Assembly: GCA_942493095.1 (NCBI GenBank)
Contig: OW818675.1
Coordinates: 2,970,001 to 3,002,000, forward strand
Direction: 5' to 3'
DNA length: 32,000 nucleotides
Source: Candidatus Electronema halotolerans
GTDB lineage: Bacteria; Desulfobacterota; Desulfobulbia; Desulfobulbales; Desulfobulbaceae
Part shown: piece after piece, positions 3,405 to 17,088 of the stretch
Layout of the letters: each line of letters starts with the position of its first letter
How positions within the stretch are numbered: position 1 is the stretch's first letter
The notes under the pieces: generated by a model
What the model was told of the DNA's origin: nothing
The model's input: only the letters and a program-made list of their open reading frames with translations
Databases searched by the model: none
Translations under genes and position numbers: made by a program

Positions 3405-5528
3405 CTATTCATCGTAGAGGCTGTCTCCGGCCCCGTCCTCCGGTAGGATTTCATCCGCATAGACCTCTGAAGCAGCCGAACCAACAGCCGGAATGCACTG
3501 CTGGCGCACCTTTTGATCAATTTCCAGCAGCATTTCAGGATGCTCCTTCAGGAACGTCTTTGAGTTCTCCCGGCCTTGACCGATGCGCTCGTCATTATAG
3601 GAATACCAAGCCCCACTCTTGTCAACGATCTTCCGATCCACTGCCAAATCAAGGAGATCTCCTGTCCGGGAAATGCCCTCGCCGTAGATGATGTCAAATT
3701 CGGATTCCTTGAAAGGCGGCGCAACCTTATTTTTGACCACCTTGACTCTGGTGCGGTTGCCGATCATCTCCTGCCCGTCCTTGATCTGGCCAATGCGGCG
3801 GATGTCAAGGCGCACCGAGCTGTAGAATTTGAGGGCATTGCCGCCAGTGGTGGTTTCTGGAGAGTTATGCACCACCACGCCGTCAACAAGATAGCAATGA
3901 TTGCCTTCCACTTCCAAGTCGAACCGGTTCATGTCTCTGGTTTCAGGTTTTTCATGGATATCGAGAATAGGCATAGGAACAGCTTTCAAGACACGCTGGG
4001 CAGTGCACTCGAACGGGACAAATTGCCCGCGTAACTTAGGCAATAGTTTGTATTCCATTGACGGATGCACGTAGGGAGCAATCATTGCATGAAATTTCGG
4101 CGTTTCCTGAACACCGAAATTGATCAAACCACGCGCCGTGAGCGTGGCCATGATTCCGCGCTGATGAAACCAGCGCACCAAAGCCTGCTGCTTCTCCAGC
4201 GAAAATCCCGCACAGCAAATTGAGCAGCGATTCTCCCGTTCACTGTCAAAAGTGCCATCATCCATATACCAAATGGCAACTGCAAGCGGAGTGAGATGAT
4301 CAATCAATGCCTGTGAGGGATTCTTACCAGTTTCGGCATAATTTTCTTGGCTCAGTTTGGTCAGTTCATACATTGGGATGGTATCAAAACTGTGACCGCC
4401 TCTCATATTTGTTGTCTCCGAGCCGATCAACCCCTCAAAAAGCGATTGTTTCCAAAGACAGTAAGCATCTTGAGCCTGACCATGTCCAATGCGAAGCGCA
4501 GTGTTGTAATCACTTACCTGTCGCAAACTACCATCTCCAAGAATAGAGCCAAACACGACTTCTTCCTGAACTGGCGAAAGATAGTGTTCAACCATTGTCA
4601 TCAAGCGATCACCAACCTTCAGTTCTCCTGCTGATTTGTATCCGTATTCGGAAAGCAGCAGATGATTAGTTGTGCAACCAAAGGTATGATGTCCATTGCC
4701 GCTGTTAGCATCCACTGTGAATTGGAGAAACAGCTCGGCGGGGCCGTTATTGAACCAGTTGACAATGCGGCGCGGCTCAAAGGCACCCGTTGTCACATCA
4801 TAGGATATGACTTCAAGAGGCATCTTCTGGTTGACAATTTTGCCTATTTTTTCTGTTGTGCCGTCAGCAAGCACCACCCGTGCGTTATAATGAAAGCATC
4901 CGAACATCACCCCGATTTTCATCCTGATCTGATTGATGAAAATCAACACCGTATTGGTTTTCTGAATCACGCTGGTGAACTTGCGCATGGCTTGAGACAT
5001 CAGCCGGGCTTGGAGGCCAACATGCATATCGCCGACATTGCCGTCAATCTCCGCTTTTGGCACTAAAGCTGCCACCGAGTCAATGACAATCACATCCAGC
5101 CCGCCGCTGCGCATGAGAATTTCGCAGATTTCCAGAGCCTGCTCGCCGAAATCCGGCTGTGAGACCAGCAGGTTGTCAACATCCACGCCCAATTTTTCCG
5201 CATAGGTGGTGTCAAGGGCATGTTCCGCGTCGATGAAGGCCGCATTGCCGCCTGCCCGCTGGGCCTCGGCAATGACGTGCAGGGCCAGCGTGGTCTTGCC
5301 GCTTGATTCCGGGCCGTAGATTTCCGTCACCCGCCCGCGAGGCAGGCCGCCCACGCCCAAGGCAAGGTCAATGCCCAAGGTGCCGGTGGAGATGACCGGA
5401 ATGTTGAGCCGCTCATGCTCGCCAAGGCGCATGATTGAGCCTTTGCCGAACTGCCGATGAATCTGGCTGATCGCGCTGTCAACGCTTTTCTGTCGTCCTT
5501 CCGCCTGTTTATCCTGGGTTGCTGCCAT
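3405..5528 (-). CDS. recA: recombinase RecA precursor interrupted by an in-frame intein
   Basis: The N-extein carries the RecA motifs [13 protein letters not shown] (Walker A), [12 protein letters not shown] and [14 protein letters not shown]. The C-extein is [23 protein letters not shown]...[24 protein letters not shown]. 345 unrelated residues lie between them. The track ORF starts at 5552, but AGGAGA precedes the ATG at 5528 (MAATQDKQ...), so 5528 is preferred. The spliced product would be about 362 aa. Confidence 0.9.
3864..4898 (-). mobile_element. RecA intein (345 aa) with LAGLIDADG homing-endonuclease domain
   Basis: - Starts with Cys (TGC at 4898-4896; [13 protein letters not shown], block A).
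- Has a TxxH block B (CTTNHLLL).
- Has two LAGLIDADG-type motifs ([11 protein letters not shown] and [11 protein letters not shown]).
- Ends ...[20 protein letters not shown] (His-Asn; AAC at 3866-3864), followed by Ser+1 (TCT at 3863-3861).
- The sequence is A+T-rich relative to the exteins: the line at 4321 has 24/60 G+C, the extein line at 5281 has 40/60. Confidence 0.85.
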
Positions 5529-5999
5529 TGTCATTCTCCTGTCATGGGTCAAAGCGGCAGCATTCTGCTGCCAGAGCAGATTGTATCAAAGCAACGGGAC
5601 TTGCGGCAAGATAATTTGCCGTGCTTCACCGCAGGCAACGGCATCCTATCGTTGCAGCAGCAAAGCATCTTATCTGAATTGTGGAAAAAATCTGAACGCA
5701 GATGGGAAATTCTTTTATGAGGGCGGCGGCCTGTTCATTGGCGCAGTCGCCTCTTCCGGCAAGGCAGGTCCGCCCAAGGCGATGCCTTGGGCTGATCTAT
5801 CGCAACCTTTTGGATTGGTGAAAAAAAATCTGAAGGAGTTCCGGTGCAAGTGAGCACGGAGCAGCACTCCCTCCAAACTTCGGCCAGCTCCCTGCTCTTC
5901 CCCATCATCCCCATCATCCCCATCATCCACATAGCCTTCCCCGCCGGGCGCACTTACAACTTGAATCCACACTCTTGGCAAGGAACTCTGGCTGCGCTG

Positions 6000-6908
6000 T
6001 CAAGCGGCTTCGCCGCGCTCCTCTTCCCGCAGGGTCTGGAAGGAATGAGGGTGCGTGAGGTTGAAGCTCTCTGTGCGCTGCAAATAGCCGGGATCAAATC
6101 CTTCCTTGCGGATGCGCTGAATCAGGCCGCCAAAGTCGGCAGCAGTCTTGACAAGGGTTGACTGCGCTGTCTTGGGCAGGGCATGATCCGAGACAATGCG
6201 TGAGCCGTGCTCTACTTCCTGCCCTTCGTCGTGCCTGTCAGTGTAATGCTGGGAAAGCACGACAATCCGGGTGCCAAGGAAGACCGCCTCCTCCAAGTCA
6301 TGAGTGACAAAGAAAATGGTCATGCCGAATTCCTCCCACAGCTCCAGCAGGAAGACCTGCATGTTCTCCCGTGAGCCAGGGTCGAGCGCGCCGAACGGCT
6401 CGTCCATGAGCAGGATTTTCGGCCTCATGATCAGCGACTGAGCAATGGCCACCCGCTGCCGCATCCCGCCGGACAGCTTGTGCGGATGCTTGCGCCAGTG
6501 CTCCTTCAAGCCGATTCGGGCCAAATAGCGCATGGCCTCGTCTTGAAATTCCTTCCTGCGCCGCCGCCATTCAAAAAAGCCGCAGGACAGGCGCGGGCCG
6601 ACCAGCACGTTGTCAAGCACGTTCAGGTGCGGAAACAGGGAATACTTCTGATAGACTATGCCCCGGCTGCGGTCAGCAAAGCCGCAGGGCTGGCCGTCAA
6701 TCAGCAGGGTGCCGGAGGTGGGCATCTCCTGTCCCAGCACGAGGCGGAGCAGGGTGGTCTTGCCGCAGCCGGACGGCCCGACCACGGTGACAATCTCGCC
6801 TTCAGCCACAGCCAGATCAATGTTGTCCAGCACCACCTTGCGGCCATAGCTCTTGCACACGTTCTGCAAAAACAGGCAGCTTGCACTGCGCAGTTCGTCC
6901 GGGTTCAT
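6000..6908 (-). CDS. ABC transporter ATP-binding protein (NitT/TauT nitrate/sulfonate/bicarbonate-type)
   Basis: Walker A GPSGCGKTTLLRL, Q-loop YQKYSLFPH, ABC signature LSGGMRQRVAIAQSL, Walker B ILLMDEPFGALD and H-loop FFVTHD are all present. The ATG overlaps the DoxX stop. Confidence 0.9.
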   Translation of the reverse strand: MNPDELRSASCLFLQNVCKSYGRKVVLDNIDLAVAEGEIVTVVGPSGCGKTTLLRLVLGQEMPTSGTLLIDGQPCGFADRSRGIVYQKYSLFPHLNVLDNVLVGPRLSCGFFEWRRRRKEFQDEAMRYLARIGLKEHWRKHPHKLSGGMRQRVAIAQSLIMRPKILLMDEPFGALDPGSRENMQVFLLELWEEFGMTIFFVTHDLEEAVFLGTRIVVLSQHYTDRHDEGQEVEHGSRIVSDHALPKTAQSTLVKTAADFGGLIQRIRKEGFDPGYLQRTESFNLTHPHSFQTLREEERGEAA

Positions 6909-8170: not shown

Positions 8171-8182
8171 GGCAGGGTTGGT

Positions 8183-8875
8183 TTAAAGCTGTTTGTGATC
8201 GAGCTGTTCGAGCCGCGACAGCCATTCAGCAAAATGAGGGCACTTCTCGCGAATTGCATTCAAGCCGATCAATTCAGCCACCTGCGGCCCTATGACAGAC
8301 TTTGCATATTTGTAATCAGGAAGCTGGGCGATGATGCGTTTGCTGGGAGCTGTTGCCAGGCCGTCATCAATCAGTTCCGGTGAGGCAAAGTCATCCGCAA
8401 TGGCTTGAAGTGCGGCAATTGCCTTTGCATCCTGCGGATAGAAAAGGGCAAATTGTGCAGGTTCAGCAAACAGACACGCCTCATACTCATGCAACTGGAC
8501 ATAAGGGACAAAGCGCGAATCGCCAATGTCATCGGCAAAAGCCTGCTCAAGCAGCGCAACACGTTCCACTGGTGAATTGCGCAGTCGTTCCGCCTCGTTC
8601 CAGCCGGGAAAATCATCAGGAAGGGCATAGAGGTCAATCATGGTGGTGAAAAACACATCATCAGCCTTTTCCTGAGCTGCAAAGCGCAGGATGTCAGCCT
8701 TGACCGGCGCGTACTTGAGTACGCCGCCCCGATGCACTTTGCCCCTTTTTCTTGCATGAGCGATGAGAATCGGCCCCTGCATGAACACTCCGAAAGCAGC
8801 AAGATACGGTTTGAGCACTGTGTCGGCAAAGGTCTGCTCTGTCTGCCCTTCGGCGAAAAGATACAGCCGGGCCAT
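8183..8875 (-). CDS. DUF4276-like protein (predicted TOPRIM-like nuclease partner of the upstream ATPase)
   Basis: 230 aa. The N-terminal strand-Glu motif is MARLYLFAEGQTEQTFADTVLKPYL, followed by an acidic segment FFTTMIDLYALPDDF. This matches my recollection of DUF4276-family proteins, which in annotated genomes sit next to AAA/ABC ATPases. Its start codon shares one nucleotide with the ATPase stop (TGATG at 8877-8873). Confidence 0.65.
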   Translation of the reverse strand: MARLYLFAEGQTEQTFADTVLKPYLAAFGVFMQGPILIAHARKRGKVHRGGVLKYAPVKADILRFAAQEKADDVFFTTMIDLYALPDDFPGWNEAERLRNSPVERVALLEQAFADDIGDSRFVPYVQLHEYEACLFAEPAQFALFYPQDAKAIAALQAIADDFASPELIDDGLATAPSKRIIAQLPDYKYAKSVIGPQVAELIGLNAIREKCPHFAEWLSRLEQLDHKQL

Positions 8876-10002
8876 CAGTGCGGCCCTCCGCCGGTGATAA
8901 TGTTTTTCTCCCAGACTTCGCCAAGGCTGTAATCTTCAAGCCATGCCTCCAGTTCTTTCGGATCAAGCCGTCTGAACTGCGATTCATTGCCTTTCCGATT
9001 CGTCACAATCACATCTTCCGCCTCAAAGCTGTTGAGGAAGGTGCTTGACTGGGTGCTGACAAGCACTTGCGTGTGCTGCGAAGCCCGGCGGAACAAGGAG
9101 GCTATGACATTGAGAGCATAAGGATGCAGGCCGAGTTCAGGCTCGTCAACAATGATCAGATCAGGCAGTTCATTTGCTGGCTGCATGAGCAGCGTGATCA
9201 GACAGATAGCGCGCAGGGTGCCATCTGAAAGCTGGTGGGGGCCGAAGACCTGATCAGACCCTTTTCCCCGCCAATTCAGCATGATCTCCCGTTTGCCCGG
9301 ACCGGTTGGCTCCAGATCAAAGTCATCAAAAAACGGGGCGATGAGACTGACTGTCCTGACAATTGGATGATACGCAGCACCGTCTTTTTCATGGCGCAGT
9401 CTGTAAAGCAGAGCGGCCAAGTTGCCCGCATCAGGCATCAGCCAGTAGTCATCGGCGATATAACAGTATTGGTGAATCCGCGCCGTGGGCGAGGTGTCAT
9501 GAAAATGATAGACCCGGCAACGAGTGAGCAGATGGATTAACCCCCGCACCTCCATTTTATGAAATGAGCTAATGTCCTTTGCTGAGTTTGCCAGTGAGAG
9601 CATCCGTGTTTCACGATGTCCTGCGGCTAATGAAATCTTCTTTGGAGATGGATGCCCAGATGAAAAGAAGCTCAGAATCTCTTCAGCAAAAACAAGTGTA
9701 TCTCCCGTTGCATGAATCAAGCGCATTTCATAGATGTTCTTGCTGCTGTCCACTTCAAATTCCAGCTTGGCCTCCATCTGCGGTGTCATCTTGGGGCCAA
9801 AGTGCAGTAGGGACTGCGCACGCCCGGACATGCCAATGTGCTGCTGAAGCCGCTCCGCCATCATCTCGTTGAGCATCTTGAAAAATGAGACAAAGTTGCT
9901 CTTTCCAGCCCCGTTCGCCCCAATGAGGACATTCAGATTGCGCAGCTCAATGTCCATTTCTTTAATGGACTTGAAGCCTTTAATGATTATCCGTTTCAGC
10001 AT
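8875..10002 (-). CDS. ABC/OLD-type AAA ATPase (AAA_15/AAA_21-like), no fused nuclease domain
   Basis: 375 aa. The N-terminal strand is MLKRIIIKGFKSIKEMDIEL. Walker A GANGAGKSNF, ABC signature-like QLSDGTLRAI and Walker B/D-loop DLIIVDEPELGLHP are present, followed by LVSTQS. This layout is typical of the SMC/OLD-like ATPases of Septu PtuA, PARIS AriA and Gabija GajA type. Confidence 0.8.
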   Translation of the reverse strand: MLKRIIIKGFKSIKEMDIELRNLNVLIGANGAGKSNFVSFFKMLNEMMAERLQQHIGMSGRAQSLLHFGPKMTPQMEAKLEFEVDSSKNIYEMRLIHATGDTLVFAEEILSFFSSGHPSPKKISLAAGHRETRMLSLANSAKDISSFHKMEVRGLIHLLTRCRVYHFHDTSPTARIHQYCYIADDYWLMPDAGNLAALLYRLRHEKDGAAYHPIVRTVSLIAPFFDDFDLEPTGPGKREIMLNWRGKGSDQVFGPHQLSDGTLRAICLITLLMQPANELPDLIIVDEPELGLHPYALNVIASLFRRASQHTQVLVSTQSSTFLNSFEAEDVIVTNRKGNESQFRRLDPKELEAWLEDYSLGEVWEKNIITGGGPH

Positions 10003-10284
10003 CTTTTTCTTGATTTTATCCTGTGACGCGACATTGCCTAGCAGAATTTTTCTGTCTCCGTCAAAGCCGCTGTGCTATCTTCGCCGCATGCGAACCCGAC
10101 TGACCATGACTGTTGCAGCACTGCTGCTCATCGCCATGCTGCTGATCTGGCAGCGGGATGTGAGACAGAAAATGCAAGATTTAAAACAGGTTCCGAGATA
10201 CTTTCCTTTGCGGAATTCTGTCTTGACGGACAGGAAGGCCAGCTCATCCTGATGTTGGAAGAAGACATGCAGGCAACCGACATC

Positions 10285-11046
10285 TCACCTCCTCTGTTGG
10301 CGGCAGCCATGACTGAATCCAGCATCATAAAGGCGTGAGGCGGCAGCCGCTTCATCTGATAATGCAGCTCCCACCAGAATCATTGCCGTTTTGCGGATGC
10401 CTGCCGCCTGCACCTTGGCGGCAATGTCTGCTAATGAGCCTTGGATAATGCGCTCATCCGGCCAGGAAGCCTTTTCCACCACTGCCGCGCTTGTCTCGGC
10501 TGGATAACCGCCTGCAACCAGCTCGGCAGCAACCTGCTCAATCATGCCCACAGACAGGAAAATGCAGAGCGAGGCCCGAATTGCCGCCAGCTTGGGCAGC
10601 GACTCTGCTTCCGGCACTGGCGTGCGTCCGCTGATGCGGGTGAAAATCACGGTCTGGGTGATCTCCGGCACAGTCAGTTCCGCCTTGAGCGCGGCGGCGG
10701 CGGCAAAGGCCGAGCTGACTCCCGGCACCACTTCATAAGGGATGCCCTCCTGCTCAAGCCGCTGCATCTGCTCGCGGATGGCCCCGTACAGAGCTGGATC
10801 GCCAGTGTGCAGACGCACCACCTTCTTGTCCGCCTGCCAAGCCGCAGTCAGCACGGCCAGCACCTCATCCAAGGTCATTCCGGCAGAGTCGTGAATTTCC
10901 GCCTGCACCCCATCCAACAGGGCTGGATTGACCAAGCTGCCTGCATAGACGATCACGTCTGCCGCATCCAAGAGGCGGCGGCCTTTGAGGGTGATCAGTT
11001 CCGGGTCGCCCGGCCCAGCTCCAAGAAAGATAATTGGCTGCTTCAT
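10285..11046 (-). CDS. cobM: precorrin-4 / cobalt-precorrin-4 C11-methyltransferase
   Basis: MKQPIIFLGAGPGDPELITLKGRRLLDAADVIVYAGSLVNPALL...VVRLHTGDPALYGAIREQ...YEVVPGVSSAFAAAAAL...TQTVIFTRISGRTPVPE is the classic CbiF/CobM pattern. An ATGA overlap joins it to the upstream cbiL. Confidence 0.9.
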   Translation of the reverse strand: MKQPIIFLGAGPGDPELITLKGRRLLDAADVIVYAGSLVNPALLDGVQAEIHDSAGMTLDEVLAVLTAAWQADKKVVRLHTGDPALYGAIREQMQRLEQEGIPYEVVPGVSSAFAAAAALKAELTVPEITQTVIFTRISGRTPVPEAESLPKLAAIRASLCIFLSVGMIEQVAAELVAGGYPAETSAAVVEKASWPDERIIQGSLADIAAKVQAAGIRKTAMILVGAALSDEAAAASRLYDAGFSHGCRQQRR

Positions 11047-12474: not shown

Positions 12475-12756
12475 TTAATAAACTTGATCATGCTTGCCTA
12501 TATCAAGCAGAACAATGACTTCAACATCCGCGCTTTGTTCGAGCGAGAACACAATTCGGCAATCATAGCCGCAACTACATGCGCGCAGCCCTTCCAATGT
12601 TCCGCTCAGTTTATGCGTATTCAGTGATGATGAGAAAATATCTTCCTGCATTTGTTCAAGAGTCATTTCAATGCTCTTCAGCAGTTTCTTGTCGCGGCGG
12701 ACAAATTTGCTGAAAGCTCGCTTGAACTTTGGGGTTACAACCAGCTCGCGTCTCAT
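12475..12756 (-). CDS. type II toxin, RelE/ParE (RelE/StbE-YafQ-like) mRNA interferase family
   Basis: 93 aa: ...FKRAFSKFVRRDKKLLKSIEMTLEQMQED...LNTHKLSGTLEGLRACSCGYDCRIVFSLEQ...IVLLDIGKHDQVY. This is the characteristic HKL.G.L.G...C....D.RI.F....I.LL.IG.HD.VY pattern. An ATGA overlap joins it to the upstream small ORF. Confidence 0.8.
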   Translation of the reverse strand: MRRELVVTPKFKRAFSKFVRRDKKLLKSIEMTLEQMQEDIFSSSLNTHKLSGTLEGLRACSCGYDCRIVFSLEQSADVEVIVLLDIGKHDQVY

Positions 12757-12980
12757 TCCTCTTTGTTCATGTATTCCCGAAGTTCTTTGATCGCATCCTG
12801 CGCTGACTGAGGTTTCAGCTCGCCTCGGCGAAACATTGCTAAAGAATCTTTTGCATCTCTGGAAATTTCGTGCCGCACAGCTTCAATGTCCCAGCTATGT
12901 ATCAAATCAGCAAGTATTTTCCGCTGTCTTGGAGAAAAATGTCGGATTGTTTCCACCACCTGTTCAAATGTCATGGACAT
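12753..12980 (-). CDS. putative antitoxin of the RelE/ParE-type toxin
   Basis: The track gives a 129-aa ORF (to 13142) that would overlap the 3' end of the 1329-aa gene. GGAGGA lies 8 nt upstream of the internal ATG at 12980, giving a 75-aa protein MSMTFEQVVETIRHFSPRQRKILADLIHSW...FRRGELKPQSAQDAIKELREYM. Its size, position and 4-nt overlap with the toxin fit an antitoxin. Confidence 0.6.
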   Translation of the reverse strand: MSMTFEQVVETIRHFSPRQRKILADLIHSWDIEAVRHEISRDAKDSLAMFRRGELKPQSAQDAIKELREYMNKEE

Positions 12981-13098
12981 GCCTGCATTCCTCCGGCTGG
13001 CAATCTTTTGTTTTTCTTGGCAGTACAGCCCTTCGACTTCGCTCAGGGCACTCGCGCCGATAAGCACTCTGAATGCGCGCTGCGCTTTCAATCTGCCT

Positions 13099-16000
13099 TC
13101 AGGCATCTGGTTCAACAATACTCCATTCCTCGAATTTCTCAAGGGTTTCTATGGGCTGATTGCCGCTGATGACCTCAGCAAGGGCGGCCAGCAGCGCAGG
13201 GTTGGGATGGCCGTCCTGCTCGGCCCTGCGGACATTGTCTGTCAAGTTCCAGCCAAGGGAGCGCACCCCGTCCAGCAGGAGTTTTTTCAGAGGGCTGAGA
13301 GTCTGGGGCTGGCAGTGGGCGTAGCGGTAGAAGGCCAGTTCTACAGCTAAATCCGGGGCTTCTTTTTCCTGATGCTGCTCTGCCTGTTCCAGCATTTCGA
13401 CAGCCTTGCTGCGATTGCCTTGCACGAAAAGAAGTTTGGCGTAGTTGCCAAGATTGTTTGCATCTTTCGGGTCAGCCTCCACAGCCCGCTCGTACATGGC
13501 TTCCGCTGCTGCGTAATCTTGCTTCTGCTGCCAAAGAAAATTTGCGTAGTTGCCGAGATTGTTCGCATGATTCGGGTCAGCCTCCACAGCCCGCTCGTAC
13601 ATCGCTTCCGCCGCTGCGTAATCTTGCTTCTGAAAATGCAAAAAATAGGCGTATCTGCCGAGATTGCGCGCATGATTCGGGTCAGCCTCCACAGCCCGCT
13701 CGTACATCGCTTCCGCCGCTGCGTAATCTTGCTTCTGAAAATGCAAAAAATAGGCGTAGTTGTCGAGATTGTTCGCATGATTCGGGTCAGCCTCCACAGC
13801 CCGCTTGTACATGGCTTCCGCTGCTGCGTAATCTTGCTTCTGATTCGCCAGAAAGAGAGCGTAGTTGCCGAGAGTGTTCGCATGATTCGGGTCAGCCTCC
13901 ACAGCCCGCTCGTACATCGCTTCCGCCGCTGCGTAATCTTGCTTCTGATTCTTCAGAAAGAGGGCGTAGTTGCCGAGAATGTTCGCATGATTCGGGTCAG
14001 CCTCCACCGCCCGCTCGTACATCGCTTCCGCCGCTGCGTAATCTTGCTTCTGATTCTCCAGAAAGACAGCGTAGTTGCCGAGATTGTTCGCATGATTTGG
14101 GTCAGCTTCTATAGCCCGCTCGTACATGGCTTCCGCTGCTGCGTAATCTTGCTTCTGCTGCCAAAGAAAAGTGGCGTAGTTGCCGAGATTGCGCGCATGA
14201 TTCGGGTCAGCCTCCACCGCCCGCTCGTACATCGCTTCCGCTGCTGCGTAATCTTGCTTCTGATTCTTCAGAAAGAGGGCGTAGTTGCCGAGATAGATAG
14301 CTCTTTCTTTATCTGTTTTTGCCAATTGCAGAGCTGTGTCCAGCCGGTTTTCTTCATCTGCCAGATCAGCGTCCTGCAAAAGTTTCTCTGTGGTTTTGTC
14401 CAGTTCGCCAAAATACAGAAAATATGCCTGCCTGAGCAGTTCTCCTCTTCCCGAAAATTGACTGAACATCAAAAAAAGAATACCTTGAGACTCTTTTTCT
14501 GCTTCTTTTTTCTTTTTATCGCGCTCTTCATCAAAAACTTTATACAGTTCGGTAAACTGAAAGACAGATAACCCCTCTAAAGCATAGCCACTCACCCGTA
14601 ATTTTTCAAAAACATGAAGTGAAAGCGACAGCTCAAGATAATTGATAAACGTATCTGCATCAAAGCCGATTTCCTCCCAATCTGCTGCACAGTTCCTAAT
14701 GCAAAGCCGATGCAAAGCGGCAATGCGCCGCTGGTCTGTCTCGCTGGAGAGCGGCAGTTCTCCTGCATATTCGGCGGAAAAATGATTAGCGCGAATAAAG
14801 TCAATACTCTCCTTGAGAGTCTCTGTTTCCGGCACCGCATACTCTGCCAAAAAATCCTTGAACCAAATCCGCCAGAGCAGCGGCGCGCAAATCTTGGCCA
14901 GAAAATTTCTATCCTCCCGGCCCAGCGGCTCCACCACCTTCCTTGCCAAACCATAGCAGGAAATATGGCCGTCCACATCCCGGCCCTGCCAATGACAGAG
15001 CAGGCCGAAGTTGTCCAACCGTTGCAGGGCTGCTGCCGGATCAGCAATTCCGGCCTTTGGACCAGCTTGCAGGAGCAGCTCTTCCGGCACCGGCACCTCA
15101 AACAGAGTCAGCAGACGCAGGAACTCACGTTCGCTGTTGCGCAGTGCCCGACTGTAAACCTCCAAGGCAATGCGCTGAAAATACTTGTCAACTTCATCCG
15201 CAGGCGATGCTGCTTCCAGCTCGGCTTGCGAGGCGGCAATTCGCTGCAAAGCACTGTCCAACGCGGCCAACTCGCCCTTGAGCAGCGGCGGAAAAAGCAC
15301 GGCCTGCAAACCGGGATTGCCCTGCGCTGCGGCAAAAATCCGCTCCAGATACTGCGCATCCTGAACCTTATCCCGCTCTTGGCTCCCGTCGCGCTGGAGC
15401 AAAGCCAGCCAGTGCTTTTCCTGCTCGGCCACAGTCATGTCCGGCACATTGATTGCCCGCAGCTTGGCGCACAAATCCTCGCCGTGGCGGTTGCGCAGAG
15501 TGAAGCAGCAGCGGGAGGTGAGCAGCAGGCGCGAGTCGGTGTCCGCTTCGGCAAACGCTTCAATCAATGCCTTGAAAACAGGTTGATATTCCCGCTTGAC
15601 CTCGGCCTTGTCTCCTTGCGTAGGCAGCGGCTCCAGAATGTGCTGCTCCAGATCGTCTGCCACCAAAACTATGGGCTGCTGATCAAAGATCCCTTCCAGC
15701 AGGCTCAGGAGAATGCCTTTCAGCCTGCCCGGATCCGCCTGCACCTTGGCTAACAGCCCAGCAAAATCAATCTCCGCATCCCGCGCAGCATCTTGCAGCA
15801 CTTCCAGCAGATCAATGGCCTGATAATGGCGATACAGGACAGCGGCCTTGCAGCGCGGCTCCAGCCGGTCAACAATCCGGGCCGCCAAGCTGGATTTGCC
15901 CGTGCCGCCAATGCCGTAGAGCAGCACGGGCCGCTGCTCGGCAAAGGCTTGCAGAGCCTCCTTGGTCTGCCAGCGTCTGCCGACAAAAGTTTCCCGGCTG

Positions 16001-17088
16001 GCAACCTGCACTTCCCCTTTTTTGTTGTCCAACAGCTCATGGCAGGGCCGCCCGCCGCGCTTGGGACTTTTCGGCTGCCGCCGCGAAATCAGGGGCAGGC
16101 CGCCTGCCGGGCCGAGACAGCAGCGGGCGGAATGCCAGTACGGGCAGCCTTCCCGGAGCATGGCCTGCCGGGCAAGAGCGCAGGCTGCGGGCACAGTTTC
16201 CTCAAATTGCAGGGCCTGATAAAAATGCTGGGCAAAACGGGTCGCGTCCTCGTCTGCTACAGCTCCGTCCCAGCCGACAAGATTGGCAATACCGAGGCGG
16301 GCCAGTTCAACCAGCAGCGAACGATGGTCGCGGTGTTCCGCGCTGTGGCAGGCTGAGAGAAAAAGAGTGCTGAACTGGTCGCGCAGGGGAATGAAATCAT
16401 GGGCCGTCGCAGGCAGGAGGCCGAATTGCCGGTCTTCGAGATGCAGGACAAAACCGCGTTCCGGGTCAAAGCTGCCGTGACAGGAAAGATGGAGGACATC
16501 GCAATGAGCGGTGTCAAGAAGGCGACTGCGCAGCCCGTCCAGACTGCCGGATTCATCGACAATCAGATTGAGCGTGCGACAGGTGCGGGCAGCGGCGAAA
16601 ATGGCCCGCTCTTCCGCTTCATAGCTGAGACCGCTGCTCAGTTCCGGGTCAGCGGCCATGAAAACTAAGGTCAGATCGCGGTATTGCGGCTGGCGCAATG
16701 TGGGTGCTGGTTGACCAGCGCGCCGGAGCACTTCAAAAGGCTGAGGAGCAGCAGCAAGAAATTGGCTGTCTGCGGCGAGAATCTCCCACGGCAGCCGCAG
16801 GAGCAGTTCGTCATCATCTGCCTCAGCAAGAACAATGAGCTGCCGCGTGCCGGGCGCATCCAGCCATTGCCGGAGAAGCTGCGGATTGCCGTTGAAAATT
16901 AACTCAGCCAGCCGTTCACCAAGTGCAAGCAGGGCGGCGTTGTCTCCAGATTGACGCAGGTCGGCGTAGGTTTCGTAGCAGTCCTCTAACCCGCTGCGCA
17001 GTGCATCAGTCAGGTCGATGGACAGCGGCGGCTGGCTGGCAAGGTTGAGGAGCAGATTGTTGTCAGCAAGCTGAAGCGTCAGATTCAT
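13099..17088 (-). CDS. CHAT (caspase-like) protease - STAND P-loop NTPase - TPR repeat protein (NLR/Avs-like tripartite architecture)
   Basis: 1329 aa.
- CHAT-type catalytic dyad contexts: DVLHLSCHGSF (His204, nt 16479-16477) and TLFLSACHSAE (Cys247, nt 16350-16348).
- NTPase: FVGRR...PVLLYGIGGTGKSSLAARIV (Walker A, residues 392-399) and QPIVLVADDLEQ (Walker B).
- A helical region of about 450 aa.
- A C-terminal array of 35-aa TPR-like repeats (DYAAAEAMYERAVEADPNHANNLGNYA.FL..QKQ). Confidence 0.9.
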   Translation of the reverse strand: MNLTLQLADNNLLLNLASQPPLSIDLTDALRSGLEDCYETYADLRQSGDNAALLALGERLAELIFNGNPQLLRQWLDAPGTRQLIVLAEADDDELLLRLPWEILAADSQFLAAAPQPFEVLRRAGQPAPTLRQPQYRDLTLVFMAADPELSSGLSYEAEERAIFAAARTCRTLNLIVDESGSLDGLRSRLLDTAHCDVLHLSCHGSFDPERGFVLHLEDRQFGLLPATAHDFIPLRDQFSTLFLSACHSAEHRDHRSLLVELARLGIANLVGWDGAVADEDATRFAQHFYQALQFEETVPAACALARQAMLREGCPYWHSARCCLGPAGGLPLISRRQPKSPKRGGRPCHELLDNKKGEVQVASRETFVGRRWQTKEALQAFAEQRPVLLYGIGGTGKSSLAARIVDRLEPRCKAAVLYRHYQAIDLLEVLQDAARDAEIDFAGLLAKVQADPGRLKGILLSLLEGIFDQQPIVLVADDLEQHILEPLPTQGDKAEVKREYQPVFKALIEAFAEADTDSRLLLTSRCCFTLRNRHGEDLCAKLRAINVPDMTVAEQEKHWLALLQRDGSQERDKVQDAQYLERIFAAAQGNPGLQAVLFPPLLKGELAALDSALQRIAASQAELEAASPADEVDKYFQRIALEVYSRALRNSEREFLRLLTLFEVPVPEELLLQAGPKAGIADPAAALQRLDNFGLLCHWQGRDVDGHISCYGLARKVVEPLGREDRNFLAKICAPLLWRIWFKDFLAEYAVPETETLKESIDFIRANHFSAEYAGELPLSSETDQRRIAALHRLCIRNCAADWEEIGFDADTFINYLELSLSLHVFEKLRVSGYALEGLSVFQFTELYKVFDEERDKKKKEAEKESQGILFLMFSQFSGRGELLRQAYFLYFGELDKTTEKLLQDADLADEENRLDTALQLAKTDKERAIYLGNYALFLKNQKQDYAAAEAMYERAVEADPNHARNLGNYATFLWQQKQDYAAAEAMYERAIEADPNHANNLGNYAVFLENQKQDYAAAEAMYERAVEADPNHANILGNYALFLKNQKQDYAAAEAMYERAVEADPNHANTLGNYALFLANQKQDYAAAEAMYKRAVEADPNHANNLDNYAYFLHFQKQDYAAAEAMYERAVEADPNHARNLGRYAYFLHFQKQDYAAAEAMYERAVEADPNHANNLGNYANFLWQQKQDYAAAEAMYERAVEADPKDANNLGNYAKLLFVQGNRSKAVEMLEQAEQHQEKEAPDLAVELAFYRYAHCQPQTLSPLKKLLLDGVRSLGWNLTDNVRRAEQDGHPNPALLAALAEVISGNQPIETLEKFEEWSIVEPDA
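13414..14292 (-). repeat. tandem array of 8 complete 105-nt (35-aa TPR-like) repeats plus a partial ninth, inside the 1329-aa CDS
   Basis: Unit boundaries on the minus strand are 14253, 14148, 14043, 13938, 13833, 13728, 13623 and 13518. The plus-strand string gattcgggtcagcctccac recurs exactly at 13569, 13674, 13779, 13884, 13989 and 14199, with a variant at 14094. This is strict 105-nt phasing. Confidence 0.95.

Follow-up and report, generated by a model that had tools for sequence, protein, structure and literature searches.

Two adjacent genes in the cable bacterium Candidatus Electronema halotolerans, one encoding an ATP-binding cassette (ABC) ATPase and the other a DUF4276 protein, raise the question of whether they form a defence module, and of which kind. 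Both are located on a 32,000-nucleotide (nt) stretch of contig OW818675.1, referred to here as the window, between tetrapyrrole methylase genes and a transporter operon. A prediction made from the DNA letters alone had proposed a PARIS/OLD-like module in which an ABC ATPase is paired with a TOPRIM-type nuclease. We find that the pair is a typical HEC-01 module, belonging to a catalogued candidate anti-phage family and representing no new kind of system, and that it is an accessory two-gene cassette which this species acquired horizontally.

Identity of the gene pair

HEC-01, for Hma-embedded candidate 01, was described by Payne et al. as an ABC ATPase together with a TOPRIM-domain protein, the two occurring within Hma systems (10.1101/2024.01.29.577857). 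In PADLOC, both window proteins match the models of this family over their full length: the ATPase matches HEC-01A (PDLC04175; 2e-140, 465.9 bits), with residues 2–371 placed on profile positions 6–360 of 363, and the DUF4276 protein matches HEC-01B (PDLC04188; 1.1e-75), with residues 1–226 placed on profile positions 12–227 of 230. Their genes lie side by side and share a strand. Pfam identified AAA_21 (3e-25) and AAA_15 (8e-18) in the first protein, and DUF4276 (PF14103) in the second (3.9e-52; 177.7 bits, the cut-off being 30.2) over the whole profile, positions 1–192 of 192. Both proteins are 100% identical to database entries of Candidatus Electronema halotolerans. The original prediction had named these ATPase families as the ones to look for and had pointed to DUF4276, and the profile searches bear it out on both.

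The genes are minus-strand open reading frames (ORFs) of 375 and 230 amino acids (aa), each beginning with ATG (Table 1). The stop codon of the first and the start codon of the second share a single base, as had been noted from the letters, and from this TGATG overlap we infer translational coupling. The other statements made about the locus were also correct. The ATPase carries the motifs ascribed to it, and Pfam detected no nuclease domain in it. The flanks of the pair are unrelated metabolic genes, with cobM-like and cobI-like tetrapyrrole methylases on one side and a NitT/TauT-type ABC transporter (permease, DoxX, ATPase) on the other. The pair is richer in A+T than cobM (29/60 G+C in the line at 9541), with a G+C content of 52.0% versus 55.8% in the window and 61% in cobM, and a third-position G+C (GC3) of 0.54–0.59 versus 0.67–0.77 in the housekeeping neighbours; the shift is nevertheless moderate, as 15% of windows of equal size have a lower G+C content.

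Insertion site and horizontal acquisition

Over the operon of permease, DoxX and ATPase, two metagenome contigs that lack the pair (L089 and L090) match the window with 92% identity. Their homology reaches window position 8194, which falls within the final four DUF4276 codons, and resumes at 10069–10147 and 10156–10312, with a weaker homology to the L090 leader extending up to the ATG of the ATPase gene. In place of the pair, both contigs have a 66-aa ORF, which in L090 (3382–3582) encodes a putative secreted peptide. These breakpoints indicate that approximately 8195–10002 replaced about 234 nt, and that the cassette now stands under the resident leader. The site has also been rearranged, as a kinase gene that is intact in L090 is reduced here to a truncated remnant (residues ~1–99 only) that is overlapped by the 3′ end of cobM (10285).

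Electronema genomes differ in what occupies the slot immediately upstream of the NitT/TauT permease: Electronema sp. PJ has a BrnT/BrnA toxin-antitoxin pair there (L091 7419–7965), and the ORF in the slot of Electronema sp. V4 is 160 aa long (L088 7469–7951). The latter, a sister species, has a copy of the pair at another locus that is 80% identical, and its DNA homology to the window there is limited to the two ORFs (10002..8200). The flanks around the pair in other genomes are likewise unrelated. It is this combination of near-identical flanks without the pair and a V4 copy elsewhere that identifies the cassette as accessory and horizontally acquired. Its lower GC3 and the existence of plasmid copies are in keeping with this. 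Both genes are functional and under purifying selection, with ratios of non-synonymous to synonymous substitution (dN/dS) of ~0.1: between the two Electronema copies the values are 0.13 for HEC-01A and 0.08 for HEC-01B, and that of the orthologous permease is 0.11. Flanks with and without the cassette, together with the sister-species copy at a different place, thus constitute a natural experiment showing that the pair is an autonomous, selected two-gene unit.

Pairing across genomes

A scan of one genome per species (185,579 species genomes) found the HEC-01 clade in 311 species, and the best 80 loci (L008–L087), at 60–72% identity, were used for the neighbourhood comparison. These loci come from about ten phyla, including Chloroflexota, Acidobacteriota, Planctomycetota, Desulfobacterota, Cyanobacteria and Bacillota, with further copies in Bacteroidota, Betaproteobacteria, Nitrospirota-like lineages and Latescibacterota. 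At every one of them (80/80) the ATPase gene lies directly upstream of the DUF4276 gene on the same strand, in agreement with the expectation that DUF4276 genes are found beside AAA ATPases. The one-base stop/start overlap is present in 74 of the 80 (TAATG in 43, TGATG in 31), and presumably fixes the stoichiometry of HEC-01A and HEC-01B. Across loci, the identities of the two proteins to the window copy are correlated (Spearman 0.41, p = 5e-4).

No third gene recurs among the 903 neighbouring ORFs (784 clusters), except for synteny within Nostoc. A comparison of loci for shared flanking DNA or terminal repeats found only a 5′ leader of ~25 nt, consisting of a Shine-Dalgarno (SD) sequence and TTG, and nothing downstream. 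Outside its coding sequence, the cassette has no conserved part other than this AGGAG-N7-TTG leader, found across phyla within 36 nt 5′ of the ATPase gene; of 72 loci, 38 start with the TTG, which lies two codons upstream of where the window has its ATG, and this usual SD-plus-TTG start is absent from the window copy. Plasmids carry 13 copies in 72,556 records, with an AAA ATPase beside each. In one Desulfomonilaceae metagenome-assembled genome (MAG; L013), a second, distant AAA_21-like ATPase with 26% identity to HEC-01A (692–1657) is found 7 kb upstream of the pair.

The ATPase HEC-01A

The Walker A motif, Q-loop region, ABC signature, Walker B motif and head fold place HEC-01A in the SMC/Rad50-like clade of ABC ATPases. 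It has 8000 homologues, the best 120 of which are 66–87% identical to it. Its C-terminal tail (…GEVWEKN..GGGPH) is also invariant. Its weaker PADLOC matches, to mad3 (7e-28), AriA (2e-25 and 5e-20), AbiLi (1.6e-24), Old (1.7e-18) and GajA (2.7e-16), are attributable to the common ABC core. The AlphaFold2 (AF2) model is of moderate confidence, with a predicted local distance difference test score (pLDDT) of 72.7; its Foldseek matches in the PDB are PtuA/retron Eco7, Rad50 and SMC heads (E 1e-13 to 1e-10), the best of them being PtuA chains. When the ATPase profile was compared with PDB sequences instead, the nearest solved relative was the class 2 OLD protein 6p74 (2e-7), and GajA was matched at 1e-3.

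The DUF4276 protein HEC-01B

In PADLOC, the DUF4276 protein matches HEC-01B models only. It has more than 4382 homologues, with 3534 representatives at the 50% identity level. Unlike that of the ATPase, its AF2 model is confident (pLDDT 94; predicted template modelling score, pTM, 0.90), and shows a strand (2–8) ending at E9, a helix (11–26), a hairpin insert, a second helix (55–68) and a strand (74–81) ending at D81, followed by helices and then a short strand before E130 and E132. A Toprim domain could show the same succession of secondary-structure elements. In the model, the first core strand ends at E9 and the third at D81, so that E9, following strand 2–8, supplies the glutamate expected of a Toprim domain at the end of its first core strand. 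Among 70 representatives with 38–66% identity, the invariant residues are E9, E13, G50, G51, D81, E130, E132, P177 and F215.

Table 1. Coordinates of the gene pair, its motifs and its junctions in the window.
Feature	Position	Strand	Basis or remark
HEC-01A, 375-aa SMC/Rad50/PtuA-like ABC ATPase	8875..10002	-	PADLOC, Pfam, AF2 and Foldseek
Walker A GANGAGKSN, residues 28–36 (K34)	9895..9921	-	G28, N30, G31, G33, K34 and N36 invariant in 52 homologues
ABC signature LSDGTLRAI, residues 258–266	9205..9231	-	S259, D260, G261, T262, L263, R264 and A265 invariant in 52 homologues
Walker B/D-loop LIIVDEPELGLHP, residues 282–294	9121..9159	-	D286, E287, P288, E289, G291, L292, H293 and P294 invariant
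STQS at the usual switch-histidine position	9046..9057	-	S-T-Q-S including Q318 in 52/52 homologues
Stop/start overlap TGATG	8873..8877	-	Read 8877->8873; TGA and ATG share base 8875
HEC-01B, 230-aa DUF4276 protein, presumed Toprim-like metal-dependent nuclease	8183..8875	-	PADLOC, Pfam, AF2
LFAEGQTE, residues 6–13	8837..8860	-	End of strand beta1; E9 and E13 invariant
TTMIDLY	8627..8647	-	End of long strand 74–81; D81 invariant, Y83 nearly so
QLHEYEA	8477..8497	-	E130 and E132 invariant; candidate extra metal ligands
Downstream junction	8171..8194	-	Last four HEC-01B codons, stop and 12-nt spacer to the permease ATG (8170)
Leader 5′ of the ATPase gene	10003..10068	-	Resident sequence, not cassette; alignable to the leader of the L090 66-aa ORF up to the ATG
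Weak promoter-like TAGGCA-16-TAAAAT	10040-10013	-	Within the leader; match not above chance
5′ remnant of a sensor histidine kinase gene	10069..10323	+	blastn/tblastn to the intact 490-aa kinase of L090; frame broken

Function and alternative explanations

The original prediction held that no DUF4276-containing pair had been experimentally characterised as a defence system. Published tests of HEC-01 and of Mad3-Mad4 have made this belief out of date: HEC-01 has been tested twice, and Mad3 and Mad4 both contribute to defence by MADS (10.1101/2023.03.30.534895; PMC11464382). E. coli B carrying a HEC-01 from a cold-seep microbe was protected from one or more of the phages T4, T5 and T7 (PMC12881386, 2026). 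In MADS, deletion of mad3 or mad4 weakens defence, and mad5 can be lost only together with mad2 or mad3 (10.1101/2023.03.30.534895).

Judging from the analogous OLD, Gabija, PARIS and Mad3-Mad4 systems, the window module probably acts as an ATP-controlled nuclease against phages or other mobile DNA. In the mechanism we propose, a dimer of HEC-01A would bind ATP and sense foreign nucleic acid or another cue of infection; its signal, presumably passed on within a complex of the two proteins, would license the DUF4276 nuclease; and the latter, through an active site predicted to consist of E9, E13, D81, E130 and E132, would cut the nucleic acid of phages or other mobile elements or, in an abortive response, host RNA. 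The conservation map singles out residues for functional tests, namely E9, E13, D81, E130 and E132 of HEC-01B and K34 and E287 of HEC-01A. HEC-01 ranks with the commonest candidate types of cold-seep sediment microbes (PMC12881386), and yet its phenotype is disputed.

A number of observations weigh against this proposal, several of which concern the nuclease itself. The Toprim DxD motif reads D81-L82-Y83 in HEC-01B, with Y83 at least 90% conserved and the second aspartate absent in this clade. Foldseek gave no PDB or BFVD match to the DUF4276 model at E <= 1e-3 and no Toprim protein among its top 50 matches, the family profile found nothing among PDB sequences even at E 10, and hhalign comparisons of the 70-sequence alignment were not significant, with probabilities of 0.15% for P2 Old and 1.5% for E. 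coli YbjD. Below significance, the best viral fold match is an RloB-like protein (Foldseek BFVD, E 0.044), and the top YbjD alignment sets RLYLFAEGQTE on RCWLLVEGETE (YbjD 377–388), lining up only the EGxTE motif.

The Toprim assignment is therefore presumed: it has been adopted from two papers, and our own fold and profile searches gave no independent confirmation of it. One of these papers assigns both DUF4276 and RloB to the Toprim superfamily and identifies Mad4 of MADS as a DUF4276 protein (PMC12065111); the other reports that the predicted HEC-01B structure has a metal site in common with the Toprim domain of a Burkholderia OLD protein (10.1101/2024.01.29.577857). Of the TOPRIM-type core proposed in the original prediction, the glutamate after the first strand and the superfamily assigned in the literature stand, whereas DxY takes the place of DxD and the fold searches lend no confirmation. 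The pattern of invariant residues nonetheless suits a Toprim-like metal site, in which E130 and E132 may compensate for the absent second aspartate.

Further points against an ATP-controlled anti-phage nuclease come from the ATPase, the distribution of the pair and the published assays. An invariant glutamine stands where the ATPase would have its switch histidine. A search of 50,697 phage records and of PHROGs turned up no copy, and for a gene in an arms race an identity of 60–72% across phyla is unusually conservative. The DUF4276 gene of Nostoc sp. 'Peltigera membranacea cyanobiont' 210A (L076) is intact and the ATPase gene there is mostly deleted, its last 62 codons being fused in frame to an upstream membrane-protein gene (8800–10681). 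In E. coli, HEC-01 protected against none of the BASEL or classic coliphages tested (10.1101/2024.01.29.577857), and the positive result of PMC12881386 comes from a spot assay whose size the text does not state.

Defence genes are also few among the 148 nearest neighbours, which represent 37 non-redundant loci; the matches comprise one Type III restriction-modification (RM) pair, PD-T4-6, mad6, three PDC-S03 and four Uma2. In a Planctomycetota MAG (L010, 5716–13965), the HEC-01 genes are placed exactly between a Type III methyltransferase (8e-189) and a Type III restriction enzyme (1e-225). Another locus (L065) has its upstream flank in common with L010, and in L008 a Type III methyltransferase gene is situated 3.8 kb from the pair. 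Overall, the association of the pair with defence islands, a check suggested with the original prediction, is weak.

On a different view, which we consider unlikely, the HEC-01 clade would be a nuclease gated by ATP, with a metal site of non-canonical type and a conserved target, and maybe no classical phage-defence island gene at all. It is prompted by the E-x3-E / D-x-Y / E-x-E set of acidic residues, which replaces the canonical Toprim E / DxD, by the switch glutamine and by the identity of 60–72% across about ten phyla, and it would explain why phages lack the clade, why its island association is weak and why the coliphage test failed. Its target may be host tRNA or rRNA, as for PARIS AriB and RNase M5, or else non-phage mobile DNA.

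It is rather unlikely that the pair is an orphaned accessory of a methylation-based system that, in the manner of Mad3-Mad4 in MADS or of pairs set within Hma or Type III RM operons, needs its partners and, on its own and without a methyltransferase or restriction partner, would do little. Such an origin is suggested by the similarity of the ATPase to mad3, also seen with the NCBIfam model MAD3 (4e-27), by the identity of Mad4 as a DUF4276 protein, by the position of the L010 pair inside a Type III RM operon, and by the lack of defence by HEC-01 alone in the 2024 test. However, the pair is kept without any recurring partner gene at all 80 loci; most loci have no RM or MADS genes nearby; the MAD3 score falls far short of its cut-off and HEC-01B matches no mad4 model at E <= 1; the stand-alone Electronema copies are under purifying selection; and a stand-alone HEC-01 did protect E. 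coli (PMC12881386).

We find it improbable that the pair is a selfish or addiction cassette, in which the nuclease would be a potential toxin checked by the ATPase and the pair would be kept because its loss harms the cell. As would be expected of such a cassette, it is a unit of two genes, patchy in distribution, horizontally moved and with tight bounds, whose neighbours are not fixed, the same slot holds BrnT/BrnA in Electronema sp. PJ, and Pfam names AAA_21 a 'putative AbiEii toxin' domain. Against this, the intact HEC-01B of L076, beside an ATPase reduced to its last 62 residues, shows that HEC-01B alone is tolerated, which argues against a toxin requiring HEC-01A as its antidote. The ATPase genes of two nanopore-derived MAGs (L040 and L066) are frameshifted as well, although these may be nanopore errors. 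There is no antitoxin-like small gene, and plasmid copies are rare (13/72,556).

A role in the maintenance of cellular nucleic acids, either as a Rad50/SbcC/RecF-like repair ATPase with its nuclease or as an RNase M5-like Toprim RNase, appears more improbable still. The resemblance of the ATPase model to Rad50 and SMC heads, SbcC-like PHROG and RecF/RecN NCBIfam matches over the P-loop region, very high conservation across phyla with dN/dS of ~0.1, and the weak association with defence islands would all fit such a role. Yet the repair-protein matches are confined to generic ABC motifs, there is neither a coiled-coil insert nor an Mre11/SbcD partner, and the pair has a GC3 atypical for its genome, occurs in only 311 of the 185,579 species genomes, is missing from a near-identical relative and occupies another locus in a sister species.

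Finally, that the pair is a functional part of the adjacent NitT/TauT transporter operon, perhaps supplying it with a further nucleotide-binding subunit and an accessory protein, is scarcely credible: it is on the same strand, 12 nt from the permease start codon with no terminator between, and is probably co-transcribed with the operon, but it recurs in 80 other genomes with unrelated flanks, the operon has an ABC_tran ATPase of its own (6000–6908), HEC-01A itself scores only 22.9 bits with ABC_tran, under the 25-bit cut-off, and this reading is effectively refuted by operons without the pair in close relatives (L088, L089, L090 and L091), where the original prediction would have been in difficulty had the pair been conserved in all of them.

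Other features of the window

A promoter and terminator scan found no terminator-like site between the pair and the permease gene; the single promoter-like site that it returned, in the leader, is no more than expected by chance.

Several other minus-strand genes of the window are of interest in their own right. The recA gene (3405–5552) is interrupted by an intein with a LAGLIDADG homing endonuclease, with RecA at residues 22–218 and RecA_C at 631–685, and LAGLIDADG_2 and Intein_splicing between them. A YafQ/RelE-type toxin gene (12475–12756; Pfam 7e-8) has a 4-nt overlap with an upstream 129-aa ORF (12753–13142), and the two are probably a type II toxin-antitoxin pair of low G+C content (44.7%). 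Toxins similar to it are found near the HEC-01 pair in two of the compared loci (L058 and L014). The adjoining gene (13099–17088) encodes a 1329-aa protein in which a CHAT protease-like domain and a STAND NTPase (AAA_16/nSTAND1) are combined with numerous tetratricopeptide repeats (TPR), an architecture reminiscent of conflict or signalling systems, and has no PADLOC match at 1e-5. A 439-aa protein (1533–2852) combines HATPase_c_2 with a C-terminal cyclic-nucleotide-binding domain, and only the latter resembles Pycsar effector models (PycTIR, 3.5e-17).

Comparison with known systems

The combination of an ABC ATPase with a TOPRIM protein, on which the PARIS/OLD-like prediction was founded, agrees with the literature, although the pair is itself neither PARIS, OLD nor Gabija. 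PARIS, which is often phage- or satellite-borne, is likewise built from two genes, one for an ABC ATPase sensor (AriA) and one for a separate Toprim-type effector (AriB). However, AriB is a DUF4435 protein and the window protein a DUF4276 protein, and HEC-01A has 375 aa compared with ~55 kDa for AriA. PARIS was rejected on the grounds that no AriB or DUF4435 match was found with PADLOC or Pfam at E <= 1, and that the AriA match covers only an AAA_21-like core of 304 positions.

OLD and Gabija GajA have a related ATPase family, and the AEGQTE of HEC-01B resembles the VEGETE with which the C-terminal domain of YbjD begins. These proteins fuse the ATPase to Toprim, whereas the window pair consists of separate polypeptides with DxY rather than DxD; with two separate ORFs and no adjacent UvrD-like gene for a GajB-type helicase partner, OLD and Gabija were also set aside. 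Septu provides the best PDB fold match of the ATPase, PtuA, and was rejected for want of an HNH PtuB partner.

AbiL and MADS3-4 are counted among the systems that combine an ABC ATPase with TOPRIM (PMC11464382). In AbiL (AbiLi with AbiLii/RloB), AbiLi matches the window ATPase, and RloB is, like DUF4276, a member of Toprim (PMC12065111); AbiL was excluded because HEC-01B is a DUF4276 protein and not RloB. Mad3-Mad4 of MADS (Maestri et al.) likewise couple an AAA_15/21-type ABC ATPase with DUF4276 (PMC11464382, PMC12065111), but MADS is an eight-gene methylation-based system with mandatory MAD6-8, none of which flanks the window pair. Membership in MADS was rejected, given that the ATPase scores 95.4 bits with NCBIfam MAD3 (NF047739) against a cut-off of 420 bits and that the flanks are cob methylases and an ABC transporter; the mad4 models of PADLOC gave no match to the DUF4276 protein at E <= 1.

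This leaves HEC-01 itself. The window copy is not embedded in Hma, dispenses with the usual SD-plus-TTG start and stands in front of a transporter operon, but its architecture is the same, with an ABC ATPase followed on one strand by a TOPRIM-like DUF4276 protein.

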